A stretch of 64,000 nucleotides of DNA from Escherichia coli. GTDB taxonomy: Bacteria; Pseudomonadota; Gammaproteobacteria; Enterobacterales; Enterobacteriaceae. Position numbers and translations under genes: made by a program. The number at the start of each line of letters is the position of its first letter. The stretch's first letter is position 1. Under the pieces are notes generated by a model. It was given only the letters and a program-made list of their open reading frames with translations, searched no databases and had not been told where the DNA came from. Shown here one piece after another: positions 3,150-61,170 of the stretch. The DNA lies in NCBI RefSeq assembly GCF_003991155.1, contig NZ_CP031293.1; one strand, 5' to 3'.

Positions 3150-3357
3150 GCGAGCAGGATTCCTGATTTTAAACGTGAACGCCGCAGGAAGAATCAACAG
3201 GCATAGAATGGCGTTGGGTGCTTGAGGCTGTCTGGCGTTAAGCATTCGCGAGGTTCCAGATGGACAAAAGCCCCAGGCGATATTTCTATCAACCTGAGGC
3301 CAGCGTTCGAACCTAAGCAATTCGGATGTTAGTCTCTTCTTTGCAGGGAGGCAAGAC

Positions 3358-3510
3358 ATGCTGACAAAATATGCCCTTGTGGCAATCATCGTACTGTGTT
3401 GTACAGTACTGGGATTCACGTTGATGGTAGGCGACTCGTTGTGTGAGTTGAGTATCAGAGAACGTGGTATGGAGTTTAAGGCAGTTCTCGCTTACGAATC
3501 GAAGAAGTAG
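3358..3510 (+). CDS. Hok/Gef-family type I toxin (50 aa, small membrane peptide)
   Basis: ORF below the 60-aa track cutoff, translated by hand: [50 protein letters not shown]; hydrophobic N-terminal helix plus SLCE and AYES motifs shared with Hok/Gef/RelF; GGGAGG Shine-Dalgarno 7 nt upstream. Confidence 0.8.
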
Positions 3511-17678: not shown

Positions 17679-18335
17679 TTATTTAATTTTATAAAACGAT
17701 AACCGTCTGCTTTCCGGCGAGCCGGTATCAATATAAACCTGATTGGCAAATGTCTGGATATTTATAAACATCATATGTCCAAAGATAAAACAGTCGGCAC
17801 CGTTTATTTCTTTTAACTCTCCCTTGAATGATTTCTGCACGCGATCAACAGGCCAGAGTAATTCGCTTTCTGCTATTTCTTTACCAAACTGATATTCATC
17901 ACCCGGATAATCTGCATGTGCGATGACATATTTTATGTTGTCGTTAGTGATTTCAATAATATGTGGAAGGTGATGGAATTTCAGCAACAGATCTATTGCC
18001 TCTTGTTGCTCTGAATCATTTAAATTGAAAAACCAGTCACCACCGCTGGCAAGCCACATATTTCCATCGCCAGTTTCGAATGCCTCAAGCGCCATCGCTT
18101 CGTGGTTGCCTTTAGCCGATGTAAACCAGGGCTGGTTTAGCAGGCGCAGCACGTTAAGACTCTCCGGCCCACGATCAATATTATCGCCGACAGAAATAAG
18201 TAAGTCGGTTTCAGGGCAAAAAGAGAGTTGATGTAAGCGGGATTGTAATAATTGATAGTCACCATGAATATCACCAACGGCCCATATATGGCGATAGTGA
18301 TGGGCATTGATTTTTTGATAGCGTGTAGATGGCAT
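17679..18335 (-). CDS. pphB: serine/threonine protein phosphatase 2
   Basis: 218-aa ORF with metallophosphatase motifs GDIHGD, GDNIDRG, GNHE. Confidence 0.9.
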   Translation of the reverse strand: MPSTRYQKINAHHYRHIWAVGDIHGDYQLLQSRLHQLSFCPETDLLISVGDNIDRGPESLNVLRLLNQPWFTSAKGNHEAMALEAFETGDGNMWLASGGDWFFNLNDSEQQEAIDLLLKFHHLPHIIEITNDNIKYVIAHADYPGDEYQFGKEIAESELLWPVDRVQKSFKGELKEINGADCFIFGHMMFINIQTFANQVYIDTGSPESRRLSFYKIK

Positions 18336-18440: not shown

Positions 18441-21002
18441 TTACACCAGACTCTTCAAGCGATAAATCCACTCCAGCGCCTGACGCGGAGTCAGTGAATC
18501 CGGGTCGAGGTTTTCCAGTGCCTCGACCGCAGGCGAAGTTTCTTCCGGTAGGGACAGCAAAGACATTTGTGTACCATCCACTTGCGTAGCAGCGGCGTTC
18601 GGCGAAATGCTTTCCAGCTCACGCAGTTTTTGCCGTGCGCGCTTAATAACCTCTTTTGGCACGCCCGCCAGAGCAGCAACCGCCAGGCCGTAGCTTTTGC
18701 TCGCCGCGCCATCCTGCACGCTGTGCATAAAGGCAATGGTGTCGCCGTGCTCCAGCGCATCGAGATGCACGTTGGCGACGCCTTCCATTTTCTCCGGCAG
18801 TTGGGTCAGCTCGAAATAGTGGGTAGCAAACAGCGTCAACGCTTTGATCTTATTTGCCAGATTTTCCGCGCATGCCCACGCCAGCGACAGACCATCGTAA
18901 GTGGAAGTTCCGCGCCCAATCTCATCCATCAGCACCAGACTGTACTCGGTGGCGTTATGTAAAATATTGGCGGTTTCGGTCATCTCCACCATAAAGGTTG
19001 AACGCCCGGATGCCAGATCGTCTGCCGCGCCTACGCGGGTAAAGATACGGTCGATCGGGCCAATCTCGACTTTTTGCGCCGGTACGTAGCTGCCGATATA
19101 CGCCATCAGCGCAATCAACGCGGTCTGGCGCATATAGGTACTTTTACCGCCCATGTTCGGACCGGTAATGATCAACATGCGGCGCTGCGGCGACAGGTTC
19201 AGCGGGTTAGCGATAAACGGCTCATTCAGTACTTGTTCAACTACCGGATGGCGACCTTCGGTAATGCGAATACCCGGTTTATCAATAAAGGTCGGGCAGG
19301 TGTAGTTCAGGGTATAGGCCCGTTCCGCCAGGTTCACCAGCACGTCGAGTTCCGCCAGCGCGCTCGCGCTCTGTTGCAACGCTTCCAGATGCGGCAACAG
19401 CAGGTCGAACAGCTCTTCATAAAGTTGTTTTTCCAGAGCCAGTGCTTTGCCTTTTGAGGTGAGAACTTTATCTTCGTACTCTTTCAGCTCCGGAATAATG
19501 TAACGCTCGGCGTTTTTCAGCGTCTGGCGGCGCATGTAGTTAATCGGTGCCAGATGGCTTTGCCCACGGCTGATCTGAATGTAGTAGCCGTGCACTGCAT
19601 TAAAGCCAACTTTCAGCGTGTCCAGGCCGGTACGTTCACGCTCGCGGACCTCCAGACGCTCCAGATAATCGGTCGCACCGTCAGCCAGCGCGCGCCACTC
19701 ATCCAGCTCTTCGTTATAGCCCGATGCGATAACACCACCGTCGCGTACCAGCACCGGTGGTGTGTCGATGATTGCTCGCTCCAGCAGATCGCGCAGCTCG
19801 GCAAACTCGCCCATCTTCTCACGCAGCGCTTGTACCGGTGCACTATCGACATTTTCTAACTGCGCACGCAACTCCGGCAGTTGCTGGAAAGCGTGGCGCA
19901 TACGGGCCAGATCGCGCGGGCGAGCAGTACGTAACGCCAGACGCGCCAGAATACGTTCCAGGTCGCCCACCTGACGCAGCACAGGCTGTATCTCGGCGGT
20001 GAAATCCTGCAATGCGCCAATAGTTTGCTGGCGCTCAAGCAACACGCGGGTATCGCGCACTGGCATATGCAGCCAGCGTTTCAGCATACGACTACCCATC
20101 GGCGTTACAGTGCAGTCGAGCACTGAAGCCAGCGTGTTTTCCGCACCGCCCGCCAGGTTCTGAGTAATTTCCAGGTTACGACGCGTCGCGGCATCCATAA
20201 TGATGCTGTCCTGCTCACGTTCCATGGTGATAGAACGAATATGCGGCAGGGTCGTGCGTTGGGTATCTTTCGCATACTGCAACAGACAACCGGCAGCACA
20301 AAGTCCGCGCGGCGCGTTCTCGACGCCAAAACCGACCAGATCGCGGGTGCCAAATTGCAGATTCAACTGCTGGCGCGCAGTGTCGATTTCAAACTCCCAC
20401 AGCGGACGACGACGCAGGCCGCGACGACCTTCAATCAGCGACATCTCGGCGAAATCTTCTGCATACAACAGCTCTGCCGGGTTGGTACGTTGCAGCTCTG
20501 CAGCCATCGTTTCGCGGTCCGCCGGTTCGCTAAGGCGAAAACGCCCGGAGCTGATATCCAACGTCGCGTAGCCGAACCCTTTGCTGTCCTGCCAGATAGC
20601 TGCCAGCAGGTTATCCTGACGCTCCTGCAACAGCGCTTCATCGCTGATGGTGCCCGGCGTAACGATACGGACAACTTTGCGCTCGACCGGCCCTTTGCTG
20701 GTCGCCGGATCGCCAATTTGTTCGCAGATGGCAACGGACTCGCCCTGATTCACCAGTTTGGCGAGATAGTTTTCCACCGCATGGTAGGGGATCCCCGCCA
20801 TCGGGATCGGCTCTCCCGCGGAAGCACCGCGTTTGGTCAGTGAAATATCCAGCAGCTGCGAGGCGCGTTTCGCGTCGTCATAAAACAGTTCGTAAAAGTC
20901 ACCCATCCGATAGAACAGCAGGATCTCGGGATGCTGGGCTTTCAGCTTGAGATACTGCTGCATCATTGGCGTATGGGCATCAAAATTTTCTATTGCACTC
21001 AT
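18441..21002 (-). CDS. mutS: DNA mismatch repair protein MutS
   Basis: 853-aa ORF; Walker [10 protein letters not shown]; recognised MutS sequence. Confidence 0.97.
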
Positions 21003-21248
21003 GGAGTTATGTCCGGTTCCCTGATATTAAATGGGGTGTGATGGTTTTTATTTTCGTTGTAATCACATAAGGCGCACATGATACCGGAGTTAATCATTTC
21101 AGGGGAAGAAGCGAACGGCGAGTTCTTGATGGTGATTCCGGGAAAGATGCTGTTTTGCAGCTTTTGCGTGATGCTTATGAAGCAAGTACGCAAAATTGCG
21201 TCGGTTGAATAAACCTCCTCCTTCAGAGCCATAGTCCCCTTTCAAATT

Positions 21249-21271
21249 AAGTTGTAATATAAATACACCTT
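21249..21271 (+). promoter_or_regulatory. imperfect inverted repeat upstream of ygbA, candidate NsrR-type operator
   Basis: aagttgtaata-t-aaatacacctt, 18 bp upstream of ygbA start. Confidence 0.35.
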
Positions 21272-21288
21272 AAGAGTATGGAGGCAGC

Positions 21289-21633
21289 ATGTCCGGCAAG
21301 CGTATCTCTCGTGAAAAACTGACGATTAAAAAAATGATCGATCTTTATCAAGCGAAATGCCCGCAGGCGTCAGCGGAGCCGGAGCATTACGACGCGCTGT
21401 TTGCCTACGCGCAAAAGCGGCTGGATAAATGTGTGTTCGGCGAAGAGAAACCAGCCTGTAAGCAGTGTCCGGTGCACTGTTACCAGCCAGCAAAGCGTGA
21501 AGAGATGAAACAGATTATGCGTTGGGCCGGGCCGCGAATGCTGTGGCGTCATCCGATCTTAACCGTGCGTCATCTCATCGATGACAAGCGTCCGGTGCCG
21601 GAGTTGCCAGAAAAATATCGTCCAAAGAAATAA
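21289..21633 (+). CDS. ygbA: YgbA (nitrous-oxide-stimulated promoter family protein)
   Basis: 114-aa ORF with Cys-rich motifs; divergent from mutS. Confidence 0.85.
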   Translation: MSGKRISREKLTIKKMIDLYQAKCPQASAEPEHYDALFAYAQKRLDKCVFGEEKPACKQCPVHCYQPAKREEMKQIMRWAGPRMLWRHPILTVRHLIDDKRPVPELPEKYRPKK

Positions 21634-21637
21634 ATCT

Positions 21638-21660
21638 GCCGGAGAGCCATACTCTCCGGC
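21638..21660. terminator. hairpin between convergent ygbA and molbindin gene
   Basis: gccggagag-ccata-ctctccggc perfect 9-bp stem. Confidence 0.5.
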
Positions 21661-21671
21661 AAATAAGGCGT

Positions 21672-22100
21672 TTACGCTTTGGTGGCAATCAGGATGGCTG
21701 ATGCTTTGATCAATGCAATAACGCGCGAGCCAGTGGTGAGTTTCATTTCATCCTGACTTTCATTTGTTACCACTGCCACAATTTCAAAACCCGCATCCGT
21801 TTTGATATGGACAGTGGCGTTCACTGCGCCTTCGGTGATTGTCGACACGCTGCCAGCAAACTGGTTGCGAGCAGAGAATTTCAGTCCACAGTCTTCCGTT
21901 GCCAGTGTTACCCACGGGGCTTTAATCAGGGCAATCGCTTCTTTCCCTTTTGCCAGACCAAGAGCCTGCTGGCTGCTGTGTGTAACAATTGCCACCAGCT
22001 TTGCACCACCTGCCAGCGTCAGTTCTACTTCATCATTCACAGCGCCCATTGCTACTGCGCTAACTGTTCCGGTTAATTGATTTCTTGCTGAAACTGCCAT
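21672..22100 (-). CDS. tandem TOBE (Mop) domain molybdate-binding protein (molbindin)
   Basis: 142-aa product from MAVSARNQLTG; two SARNQ-containing repeats; AGGAGG Shine-Dalgarno before ATG at 22100. Confidence 0.75.
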   Translation of the reverse strand: MAVSARNQLTGTVSAVAMGAVNDEVELTLAGGAKLVAIVTHSSQQALGLAKGKEAIALIKAPWVTLATEDCGLKFSARNQFAGSVSTITEGAVNATVHIKTDAGFEIVAVVTNESQDEMKLTTGSRVIALIKASAILIATKA

Positions 22101-22144
22101 ACTGCCTCCTTTCATTGAATGTTGATCGAGTATAACCACATCTG

Positions 22145-24223
22145 TTAAATCAATGCCGATTTATCAATTCCCAGTCGCTTCATCCGTGACAGCAGGGTCG
22201 TGCGTTTCAGCCCCAGACGTTGCGCAGCGCCTTTAGGTCCGGCAACCACGCCGTTAGTTTCTTTCAGCACGCGAACAATCAACTGATATTCATCTTCGCC
22301 CTCCTGAGCGACAACCGTTGCGGCAGGCGGCGTTTCAGGTTCTGGTAAAGCAATATCTGGCAATGACAGCTGCAGCACGTTGCCGCGTGTTAGCAATACC
22401 GCGCGCTCAATGACGTTTTCCAGCTCACGCACGTTGCCCGGCCATTCCATGTTGCTCAGGATGCGCAGCGTCTCGGCAGGAATGCTGTCGATATTGCGCC
22501 CCAGACGACGGGCAATTTTGAAGGTAAAGGCTTTCGCCAGCAGCGGAATATCTTCCGGACGCTCGCGTAGTGGCGGCAGGTGGATCGGGAATACGTTCAG
22601 GCGGTAATAGAGATCGCTACGGAACTCTCGGTCGGCGACCATTTTTTTCAGATCGCGGTTAGTCGCGGCAATTAAACGTACGTCCGTCTGAATGATTTTG
22701 TTGCTGCCAAGACGTTCAAACTCCTGTTCCTGTAATACACGCAGCAACTTCGGCTGTAACTCCAGCGGCATATCGCCCACTTCATCGAGGAATAGTGAGC
22801 TTTTATCCGCCAGTTCAAAACGACCAATGCGCTGAGCGCTGGCACCGGTAAAAGCCCCACGCTCATGACCAAATAGATCGCTTTCCAGCAATCCGGCAGG
22901 CATCGCCGCGCAGTTCATTTTGACCATGCGGCGATTATTACGCCCACTGAGATTATGGATCGCGCGGGCAATCAGCTCTTTACCTGTACCAGTTTCACCG
23001 AGGATCAGCACGGTACTGTCACTTTGCGCCACCATTTCAACTTGTTTAAGTACGCTGTACATGGCTTCGCTGCGGCCAATAATCTCGCCAAATTCACTAT
23101 CAACATTGTTGAGCTGCTCGGTCAGGGCGAGGTTTTCATCAACCAGCCGTTCTTTCAGACGATGAATTTCCTGATAGGCGAGGGCGTTATCGACAGCGAT
23201 TGCCACACGTTCGGCAATCTGGCGCAGTAAGCTCAGATTGGTAGTGGTAAATACTTTCTCTTCGCATTGCGCCAGTTTCAGCACGCCCAGCATGGTGTCG
23301 CCAGACATCAGCGGTAACAGGCACAAGGTTTGAATCTGGTTGCCCCAGGTGTCGAACAACATGCGTTCATAGGGGGCTAAATCGTCCCGCTCGTGGAGAT
23401 TAATCAACAGCATCTCTTTACTTTTGAAGACGCGTTCGGTGAGGGTTCCGGCTTCATCGACTTCGCTCTGTTCGTGGGCGGGATGCTGTTTATCAAGATA
23501 GTGAGTGGAGTAGATGTTGAGTTTGTTTTTACGGTGGCTGCGTAAGACAATGCTGATATCGTCAATGTCGAAATAGTAATGGATTTCTTTGGCGACTTCG
23601 CTGACCAGTTCGTCCATATCCAGGCGGGAAAGCACCGCGTTGGTGATGGCGACCAGGATGCGGAAGTTATCGCGTTCCCGGCATAACAACTCATAGTCGA
23701 CATTGTTAACGACGCGGCTCTGGATTTGTTCGGTGACGACAGAAACGATCTGCGTAAATGTTTGCAGGCGATTGAACTCTTTTTCACTCCACGGGCGATC
23801 GTCATAACGAATAAATTCACAGCCACCAAAAATATGCCCTTCCGCCGCCAGTGGCATCAGGCAATAGTGACCAAATTTGGGGTATAGCCCACCTGCGGCC
23901 AGCTGCGGCCAGGTTTCACAAAATTCTTCGTAACTGCAATGCAGCGTATCAGGGCGCGACAAAATGCTGCGTACCGGACCGTGTGCCAGAACAGTTTCGT
24001 CTTCATATTTAATGGGGGTGTCTTTTTCACGCGACGCGTAATAAGACGCACGTTGAGTCTGCGCTTGCCACAACACAATAGCCGCGTTGTCGGCGAGCGC
24101 AGAACGCTTTACCAGTTGCGAAAGAGCCTCACACAGCGAGGCCAGATCGGGCTGCTGCAATAGTGTCCGAGTGATGTCGAACAACCCTTGTTGTCCGAGA
24201 TCACTCATCGGTGTATATGACAT
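22145..24223 (-). CDS. fhlA: formate hydrogenlyase transcriptional activator (sigma-54 dependent)
   Basis: 692 aa from MSYTPMSDLGQQ; GAF domains plus AAA+ sigma-54 activator motifs ([14 protein letters not shown]) and C-terminal HTH. Confidence 0.95.
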   Translation of the reverse strand: MSYTPMSDLGQQGLFDITRTLLQQPDLASLCEALSQLVKRSALADNAAIVLWQAQTQRASYYASREKDTPIKYEDETVLAHGPVRSILSRPDTLHCSYEEFCETWPQLAAGGLYPKFGHYCLMPLAAEGHIFGGCEFIRYDDRPWSEKEFNRLQTFTQIVSVVTEQIQSRVVNNVDYELLCRERDNFRILVAITNAVLSRLDMDELVSEVAKEIHYYFDIDDISIVLRSHRKNKLNIYSTHYLDKQHPAHEQSEVDEAGTLTERVFKSKEMLLINLHERDDLAPYERMLFDTWGNQIQTLCLLPLMSGDTMLGVLKLAQCEEKVFTTTNLSLLRQIAERVAIAVDNALAYQEIHRLKERLVDENLALTEQLNNVDSEFGEIIGRSEAMYSVLKQVEMVAQSDSTVLILGETGTGKELIARAIHNLSGRNNRRMVKMNCAAMPAGLLESDLFGHERGAFTGASAQRIGRFELADKSSLFLDEVGDMPLELQPKLLRVLQEQEFERLGSNKIIQTDVRLIAATNRDLKKMVADREFRSDLYYRLNVFPIHLPPLRERPEDIPLLAKAFTFKIARRLGRNIDSIPAETLRILSNMEWPGNVRELENVIERAVLLTRGNVLQLSLPDIALPEPETPPAATVVAQEGEDEYQLIVRVLKETNGVVAGPKGAAQRLGLKRTTLLSRMKRLGIDKSALI

Positions 24224-24296
24224 TTTGTTCTTCCAGGAAAGCACCGCAAAGCGGTGCAAAAGGTCATTGACTAACTATAGGAGATTTAGAATTTTA

Positions 24297-28587: not shown

Positions 28588-28711
28588 GCTGAGGCTTTGC
28601 CCGTTTTGCAGGCGTTACGCCTGTTTGGGGATGGGCGTGTCGATGAGTGTCGAAAATGACATTTCATCGGCATGTTTTCGTCAAAAATGACAATCACCTG
28701 AGGAATGACTG

Positions 28712-41074: not shown

Positions 41075-41177
41075 TTTCCTGCATTACAGAATTTAATTTC
41101 TTTAAATAACAGTAAATTAAAAACTGGCATGATTTGTGAATGTATCGGCGCATTAACTGTCATTGCTGGAGAATTTG

Positions 41178-41705
41178 ATGAACCGTTTCATCATTGCTGA
41201 CGCGAGTAAATGTATTGGTTGCCGTACCTGTGAAGTGGCGTGCGTGGTTTCTCATCAGGAGAATCAGGACTGTGCATCGCTGACCCCGGAAACTTTTTTA
41301 CCGCGAATCCATGTCATTAAAGGTGTGAACATTTCTACGGCAACAGTCTGCCGTCAGTGTGAAGATGCACCGTGCGCTAACGTCTGCCCGAATGGTGCTA
41401 TCAGCCGTGATAAAGGGTTTGTTCATGTGATGCAGGAACGTTGCATTGGTTGCAAAACCTGCGTTGTGGCTTGCCCGTATGGCGCGATGGAAGTGGTGGT
41501 ACGTCCGGTGATTCGCAACAGCGGCGCAGGGCTTAACGTACGGGCTGACAAAGCCGAAGCCAATAAATGCGACCTCTGTAACCATCGTGAAGACGGCCCG
41601 GCGTGTATGGCTGCTTGCCCGACCCATGCGCTGATTTGTGTCGATCGTAATAAACTTGAACAACTGAGCGCAGAAAAACGTCGCCGTACGGCGCTGATGT
41701 TCTAA
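41178..41705 (+). CDS. hydN: electron transport protein HydN (4Fe-4S ferredoxin-type)
   Basis: 175 aa from [15 protein letters not shown]; multiple Cys clusters. Confidence 0.9.
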
Positions 41706-46746: not shown

Positions 46747-46792
46747 AGCAACCTCAATTTATTCAGCGTGTTCTAAAAAGATGTCTTGCTAA

Positions 46793-46809
46793 TTGCAGAT
46801 TGCGTGCCA
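46793..46809 (-). promoter_or_regulatory. sigma-54 (-24/-12) promoter for norVW
   Basis: Minus-strand reading TGGCAC-gcaat-CTGCA. Confidence 0.7.
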
Positions 46810-46864
46810 GTTTTTTATCTGATTGTTTTTACTCTATAAATAAAATTGTGCTCATTAATGAGTA

Positions 46865-60578: not shown

Positions 60579-60671
60579 GGTGAGGTGGCCGAGAGGCTGA
60601 AGGCGCTCCCCTGCTAAGGGAGTATGCGGTCAAAAGCTGCATCCGGGGTTCGAATCCCCGCCTCACCGCCA
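60579..60671 (+). tRNA. serV: tRNA-Ser (anticodon GCU)
   Basis: 93-nt cloverleaf with long variable arm; GGTGAGG...CCTCACCGCCA; anticodon loop CTGCTAA. Confidence 0.93.
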
Positions 60672-60674
60672 TTT

Positions 60675-60751
60675 GCATCCGTAGCTCAGCTGGATAGAGT
60701 ACTCGGCTACGAACCGAGCGGTCGGAGGTTCGAATCCTCCCGGATGCACCA
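60675..60751 (+). tRNA. argV: tRNA-Arg (anticodon ACG), copy 1
   Basis: 77-nt GCATCCGTAGCTCAGCTGGATAGAG...CGGATGCACCA; anticodon loop CTACGAA; copy-to-gene-name assignment is tentative. Confidence 0.93.
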
Positions 60752-60815
60752 TCTCTTACTTGATACGGCTTTAGTGGCGGTATCAAAAAATCTGCAGTAA
60801 AGTAAGTTTCCCGAT

Positions 60816-60892
60816 GCATCCGTAGCTCAGCTGGATAGAGTACTCGGCTACGAACCGAGCGGTCGGAGGTTCGAATCCTCCCGGATGCACCA
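60816..60892 (+). tRNA. argY: tRNA-Arg (anticodon ACG), copy 2
   Basis: Identical 77-nt sequence; name assignment tentative. Confidence 0.93.
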
Positions 60893-60954
60893 TCTCTTAC
60901 TTGATATGGCTTTAGTAGCGGTATCAATATCAGCAGTAAAATAAATTTCCCGAT

Positions 60955-61031
60955 GCATCCGTAGCTCAGCTGGATAGAGTACTCGGCTACGAACCGAGCG
61001 GTCGGAGGTTCGAATCCTCCCGGATGCACCA
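60955..61031 (+). tRNA. argZ: tRNA-Arg (anticodon ACG), copy 3
   Basis: Identical 77-nt sequence; name assignment tentative. Confidence 0.93.
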
Positions 61032-61093
61032 TCTCTTACTTGATATGGCTTTAGTAGCGGTATCAATATCAGCAGTAAAATAAATTTCCCGAT

Positions 61094-61170
61094 GCATCCG
61101 TAGCTCAGCTGGATAGAGTACTCGGCTACGAACCGAGCGGTCGGAGGTTCGAATCCTCCCGGATGCACCA
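61094..61170 (+). tRNA. argQ: tRNA-Arg (anticodon ACG), copy 4
   Basis: Identical 77-nt sequence; name assignment tentative. Confidence 0.93.

Follow-up and report, generated by a model that had tools for sequence, protein, structure and literature searches.

NsrR and the ygbA gene

The ygbA gene is a textbook example of an NsrR-regulated gene; the prediction of its NsrR site, and reports of binding in K-12, date back to 2005-2009. NsrR is an Fe-S protein that acts as an NO-sensitive repressor; it binds as a homodimer to an 11-1-11 repeat of the motif AAxATGCATTT, and loss of the cluster abolishes DNA binding (PMC5320621, PMC8175989). In E. coli, ygbA has been cited as repressed by NsrR (Bodenmiller & Spiro 2006, as cited in PMC1274295 and PMC5320621) and the K-12 ygbA promoter as bound by NsrR in ChIP-chip (Partridge et al. 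2009, as cited in PMC5320621). A Salmonella nsrR mutant showed a 31.8-fold increase of ygbA expression (PMC2884951), and in the nitrate response of E. coli strain CFT073 ygbA was among the most induced genes (PMC5320621). For CFT073, a table of 27 NsrR sites of the 11-1-11 type is available (Table 4 of PMC5320621; Mehta et al. 2015).

The element analyzed here is very probably this already known NsrR operator of ygbA, present as a common natural allele, and its recognition has little significance beyond correct annotation. What we add is modest: comparative evidence suggesting that the -10 hexamer of the promoter is embedded in the left half-site plus the spacer base, and a list of natural operator alleles.

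Genomic context of the ygbA locus

The window is a 64,000-nucleotide stretch of the E. coli contig NZ_CP031293.1. Over its ygbA region (20950..21700) it shows 100% identity with numerous E. coli chromosomes, among them those of IAI39 and CE10, and this region has matches in 5,419 of 5,426 complete E. coli genomes. The features of the locus are the following:

18441..21002, minus strand, mutS
21249..21271, no strand, very probable NsrR operator, 11-1-11 inverted repeat AAGTTGTAATA-T-AAATACACCTT (from sequence, position weight matrix (PWM), orthology and conservation)
21280..21284, plus strand, Shine-Dalgarno sequence GGAGG of ygbA (from sequence; invariant within Escherichia)
21289..21633, plus strand, ygbA, the regulated gene, a coding sequence of 114 aa (open reading frame; Pfam PF11756 YgbA_NO, E 4e-41)
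21634..21664, no strand, G+C-rich, terminator-like hairpin of 14 pairs where ygbA and the TOBE gene converge (minus-strand call)
21672..22139, minus strand, TOBE-domain gene
22145..24259, minus strand, fhlA

The original prediction had assigned ygbA to an NO-responsive gene family, which agrees with the YgbA_NO domain of the product; the RefSeq label is 'nitrous oxide-stimulated promoter family protein'. The nsrR gene lies outside the window, and it is present (at least 95% identity) in 5,425 of the 5,426 complete E. coli genomes, a set that includes strains identical to the window over 20950..21700. The hairpin at 21634..21664 is likely a terminator.

Two neighbors of ygbA deserve a comment. 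The product of the TOBE gene, located between ygbA and fhlA, has 155 aa and two TOBE domains of the molybdate-binding type (Pfam PF03459). This gene is absent from K-12 MG1655, where the gap between fhlA and ygbA is only 36 bp, so it represents a strain-variable insertion or deletion. The mutS-ygbA intergenic region contains a 44-aa ORF (21078..21212, plus strand) that ends 37 nucleotides upstream of the operator; RefSeq E. coli genomes list it as a hypothetical protein, and a Pfam search with it gave no match.

Match to the NsrR motif

The original prediction had considered an NsrR-type operator plausible and had proposed a PWM scan as a check. A strand-symmetric PWM was built from the 25 distinct non-ygbA NsrR sites in Table 4 of PMC5320621, and the whole window was scanned with it. 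The segment 21249..21271 ranked first among 63,978 positions with 21.4 bits, a score about equal to that of the hmp site (21.3 bits) and in the middle of the range of the training sites. This score was attained in at most 1% of 200 first-order Markov random sequences of 64 kb, and its exact P value on a uniform background is 8.4e-8 (ln P -16.3), corresponding to 0.005 matches expected per window; a cut-off of -14.28 was used in PMC5320621 with the PWM of that study. The site is thus the best NsrR match in the window and stands far above chance. Likewise, the footprint consensus AANNNGTANNATNNATRCANNTT occurs once in the window against 0.04 occurrences expected. Counted from the sequence, the right half matches 8 of 10 specified consensus positions and the left half 6 of 10.

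The second-best PWM match, AAATGACATTTCATCGGCATGTT at 28654..28676 in the hycA-hycB gap, has the same sequence as the hycB site published for CFT073 (PMC5320621); in that strain the site is covered by one of the strongest NsrR ChIP-seq peaks (16-fold enrichment). This match served as an internal control, showing that the PWM recovers real sites in this window. The hycB gene is strongly down-regulated by nitrate in CFT073, and its site does not look like one of simple repression. Weak matches of 10.6 and 11.0 bits were found at 46790..46812, in the norV-norR intergenic region, and at 41122..41144, just upstream of the ORF at 41163..41705. Both contain TGGCA, and the minus strand of the former, TGGCACGCAATCTGCA, is similar to a sigma-54 promoter. 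Sequences of this kind apparently give a weak cross-reaction with the NsrR PWM.

Concerning symmetry, an 11-1-11 imperfect inverted repeat had been claimed at 21249-21271, and the sequence was found at exactly these positions, with the left half at 21249..21259, the spacer base at 21260 and the right half at 21261..21271. The distance of 18 bp given for it holds if counted from the last base of the site to the A of the ygbA ATG (21289); 17 nucleotides lie between them. Eight of the 11 positions pair between the arms; extended to TTAAG...CTTAA, the repeat pairs at 10 of 13. The window contains 93 repeats of the 11-1-11 type with complementarity of at least 8/11, so the palindromic symmetry of the site is no more than would be expected by chance and was rejected as evidence for an operator. 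Its significant features are the motif match and the conservation across species.

Comparison with published NsrR sites

The ygbA sites of K-12 and of the CFT073 type align column for column with the site in the window, and this orthology, together with the PWM rank and the literature, bears out an NsrR-type operator at this position. The reverse complement of the CFT073 ygbA site (Table 4 of PMC5320621) is AAGTTGTAATATAAATGCACCTT, which shares 22 of 23 bases with the window. The single difference is at 21265, where the window has A instead of G (ATACA versus ATGCA); K-12 also has A. With a ln P of -16.65 the CFT073 site is over the published PatSer threshold; it showed no ChIP-seq peak and was regarded by the authors as a false negative (PMC5320621). 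The K-12 MG1655 site, AAGATGTAATATAAATACATCTT, has the same position between mutS and ygbA, the same 11-1-11 layout and the same distance to the ATG, and shares 21 of 23 bases with the window. The two differ at motif position 4 (21252), which is T in the window and A in K-12, and at position 20 (21268), which is C in the window and T in K-12; the site in the window scores 1.5 bits lower.

The operators of ytfE, hcp and hmp (consensus AAxATGCATTT-N-AAATGCATxTT; PMC8175989, PMC5320621) have the half-site motif, the 1-bp spacer and the promoter-proximal position in common with ygbA. Yet the ytfE operator is a near-perfect palindrome, whereas the ygbA left half departs from the consensus at four of its ten specified positions, a poor fit that we attribute to its apparent second role as a -10 hexamer.

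Conservation among Enterobacterales

A scan of one genome per species yielded 80 other ygbA loci, from Escherichia, Citrobacter, Salmonella, Enterobacter, Klebsiella, Raoultella, Kluyvera, Leclercia, Lelliottia, Rahnella, Hafnia and other genera. The best PWM match within 300 nucleotides upstream lies 12-25 nucleotides from the matched gene start in 79 of these 80 loci, the exception being Hafnia with 41 nucleotides, and the distance is 15-20 nucleotides in 73 of the 81 sequences. Information content averages 1.40 bits within the site versus 0.19 in the 70 nucleotides upstream and 0.37 downstream, in a profile whose anchoring on the best PWM match inflates conservation at the positions scored by the PWM. 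Such a bias does not explain the fixed position of the site, nor the conservation found at positions that the PWM ignores or disfavors.

The two halves are conserved in different ways. The right half has the higher score in 70 of 81 sequences (means of 11.4 bits for the right and 7.5 for the left) and reads AAATRCAnCTT, near-invariant at T16, C18, A19, T22 and T23 across the 81 taxa. In the left half, site position 7 is T in all 81 sequences against a PWM preference for C, while its mirror position is C in 69 of 81; position 11 is A in 80 of 81 against a PWM preference for T at 0.80. The spacer base, where the PWM is uninformative, is T in every one of the 81 sequences. Together with an invariant A at position 8, these positions spell TAnnAT.

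A putative promoter within the operator

This hexamer reads TAnnnT in 81 of 81 and TAnnAT in 80 of 81 sequences, with variants that include TATTAT, TAATAT, TAGAAT and TAAAAT. Apart from one patch, 17 bp upstream of the hexamer, the flank is not conserved. This patch reads TTG in most genera and TAG in Escherichia, and its G at 21234 is kept in 91% of taxa. Among 24 offsets, 21232..21237 gave the best mean match to TTGACA. We infer from these patterns a sigma-70 promoter of ygbA with the following elements, all on the plus strand:

21232..21237, predicted weak -35 element TAGTCC, with a 17-bp spacer to the -10 (comparative evidence)
21255..21260, predicted -10 hexamer TAATAT, within the left half-site plus the spacer base (comparative evidence)
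21266..21268, predicted transcription start, about 7 nucleotides after the -10 and within the right half-site (from geometry only)

The predicted start, near 21267, implies a leader of about 22 nucleotides. A sigma-70 consensus scan of 20950..21750 called no promoter, because the proposed -35 matches the consensus at only 3 of 6 positions and the -10 at only 4 of 6; the promoter assignment is therefore a comparative one. A full-text literature search for a ygbA transcription start site found none.

An NsrR operator as the best explanation

We consider it very probable that 21249..21271 is the operator of the ygbA promoter for NsrR, a repressor of the Rrf2 family. Bound NsrR would probably occlude the -10 and the start point until NO releases it. 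The segment has two AAxATGCATTT-like half-sites separated by a 1-bp spacer, is located at the predicted promoter, is orthologous to published sites, is conserved across species, and occurs in a species that carries nsrR. The motif match, the orthology and the conservation come from this analysis, and the NsrR dependence of ygbA, the binding in K-12 and the cluster-dependent release from the literature. Under the proposed mechanism, a dimer of holo-NsrR would sit on the two 11-bp half-sites, with the right half, near the consensus, probably providing most of the affinity, and the left half degenerate because it would also have to spell the -10 hexamer. Bound NsrR would cover the end of the promoter spacer, the -10 and the start region, and since the operator spans both the -10 and the start point, RNA polymerase would be kept off. 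Damage of the NsrR Fe-S cluster by NO would then take NsrR off the DNA and allow ygbA to be transcribed. The NsrR footprint at V. vulnificus hmpA likewise covers the start site, from -2 to +18.

Three other explanations were weighed. The site could be only the AT-rich core of the ygbA promoter, a -10 and start region with accidental symmetry and no repressor bound. The frequency of comparable palindromes in the window and the clear constraint of the left half as TAnnAT would both fit such a core promoter, but the near-invariant right half is not needed by a promoter and matches an NsrR half-site in the 81 taxa, and neither the PWM match (P 8e-8) nor the NsrR-dependent expression of ygbA in the literature would be accounted for. 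We regard this explanation as very improbable. The chance that the segment is the operator of another regulator, such as IscR (another Rrf2 protein), FNR, NarL/NarP or Fur, appears slimmer still. Proteins of the Rrf2 family do bind similar AT-rich palindromes, and NO-responsive genes are often under FNR or NarL/NarP as well. However, over 21249..21271 we found no meaningful match to the consensus sequences of FNR, IscR types 1 and 2, NarL/NarP (7-2-7), sigma-54 or Fur, in contrast to the good fit of the NsrR PWM. Across the whole mutS-ygbA interval, the closest matches have 2 mismatches for FNR (21168..21181) and 3 for NarL/P (21216..21231), and those to IscR type 1, IscR type 2 and Fur have 9, 8 and 7, respectively. 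The FNR-like sequence, GTGATGCTTATGAA compared with the consensus TTGATnnnnATCAA, precedes the predicted ygbA start by about 90 bp and is probably due to chance.

The least probable of the three, to which we give almost no weight, is that the palindrome folds into an RNA hairpin of the ygbA 5' leader that controls translation or stability. The inverted repeat could form a short stem, but its minimum free energy of -7.1 kcal/mol is unexceptional (z-score 0.15), with 107 of 200 shuffled sequences folding as well or better, and with a start near 21267 the right arm alone would be transcribed. In addition, the variation among taxa tracks the NsrR and -10 motifs and not compensatory pairing, the arms being asymmetric at positions 7 and 11. 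The NsrR operator accordingly stays as the preferred reading of the segment, and on this reading the ygbA site would be a tidy example of a single piece of DNA under two constraints, those of a repressor half-site and of a -10 hexamer. A well-defined, tightly NO-gated promoter would also be a useful handle on the function of YgbA.

Natural alleles of the operator

A comparison of eight Escherichia sequences showed variation of the 23-mer at three motif positions only, 4, 17 and 20, all of them of low information in the motif. Among five Escherichia alleles compared, that of the window scores lowest, with 20.0 bits versus 21.0-22.5 bits for the others (1 to 2.5 bits less). The exact 52-nucleotide allele of the window (21240..21291) was found in about 1,293 complete E. 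coli genomes. About 1,149 genomes fall in the band of 95-99% identity to it, a CFT073-like class in which the sampled matches had two mismatches, and about 2,533 fall in the band of 80-90% identity, a K-12-like class that includes K-12 derivatives. Such a catalogue of natural operator alleles may help to relate operator strength to the tuning of the NO response.

The mirror positions 4 and 20 (21252 and 21268) mostly change together, being T and C in the window, in the CFT073 type and in E. albertii, and A and T in K-12-like sequences; E. whittamii has T at both positions. The paired change could reflect linkage or co-adaptation of the two half-sites. It is a speculative and rather unlikely proposal that the alleles at positions 4, 17 and 20 would set lineage-specific affinities for NsrR, and hence the NO thresholds for ygbA induction. 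If true, differing affinities of the alleles might explain the ChIP signal in K-12 versus none in CFT073. Separately, the use of the left half-site and spacer as a -10 is perhaps unstated in the literature.

Other features of the window

On the plus strand, the segment 15343..17390 contains ORFs with Pfam Flavoprotein (UbiX-like) and UbiD-family decarboxylase domains, adjoining a pphB-like phosphatase gene (17679..18335). K-12 carries ygbI on that side of pphB, so this flank varies among strains. A sok antitoxin RNA (Rfam RF01794, 110 bits) at 3216..3373 on the plus strand indicates a chromosomal toxin-antitoxin locus of the hok/sok type. Near the other end of the window, five clustered tRNA genes lie at 60579..61167 on the plus strand, four of them with an identical score (67.1 bits) and with a spacing of about 140 bp.
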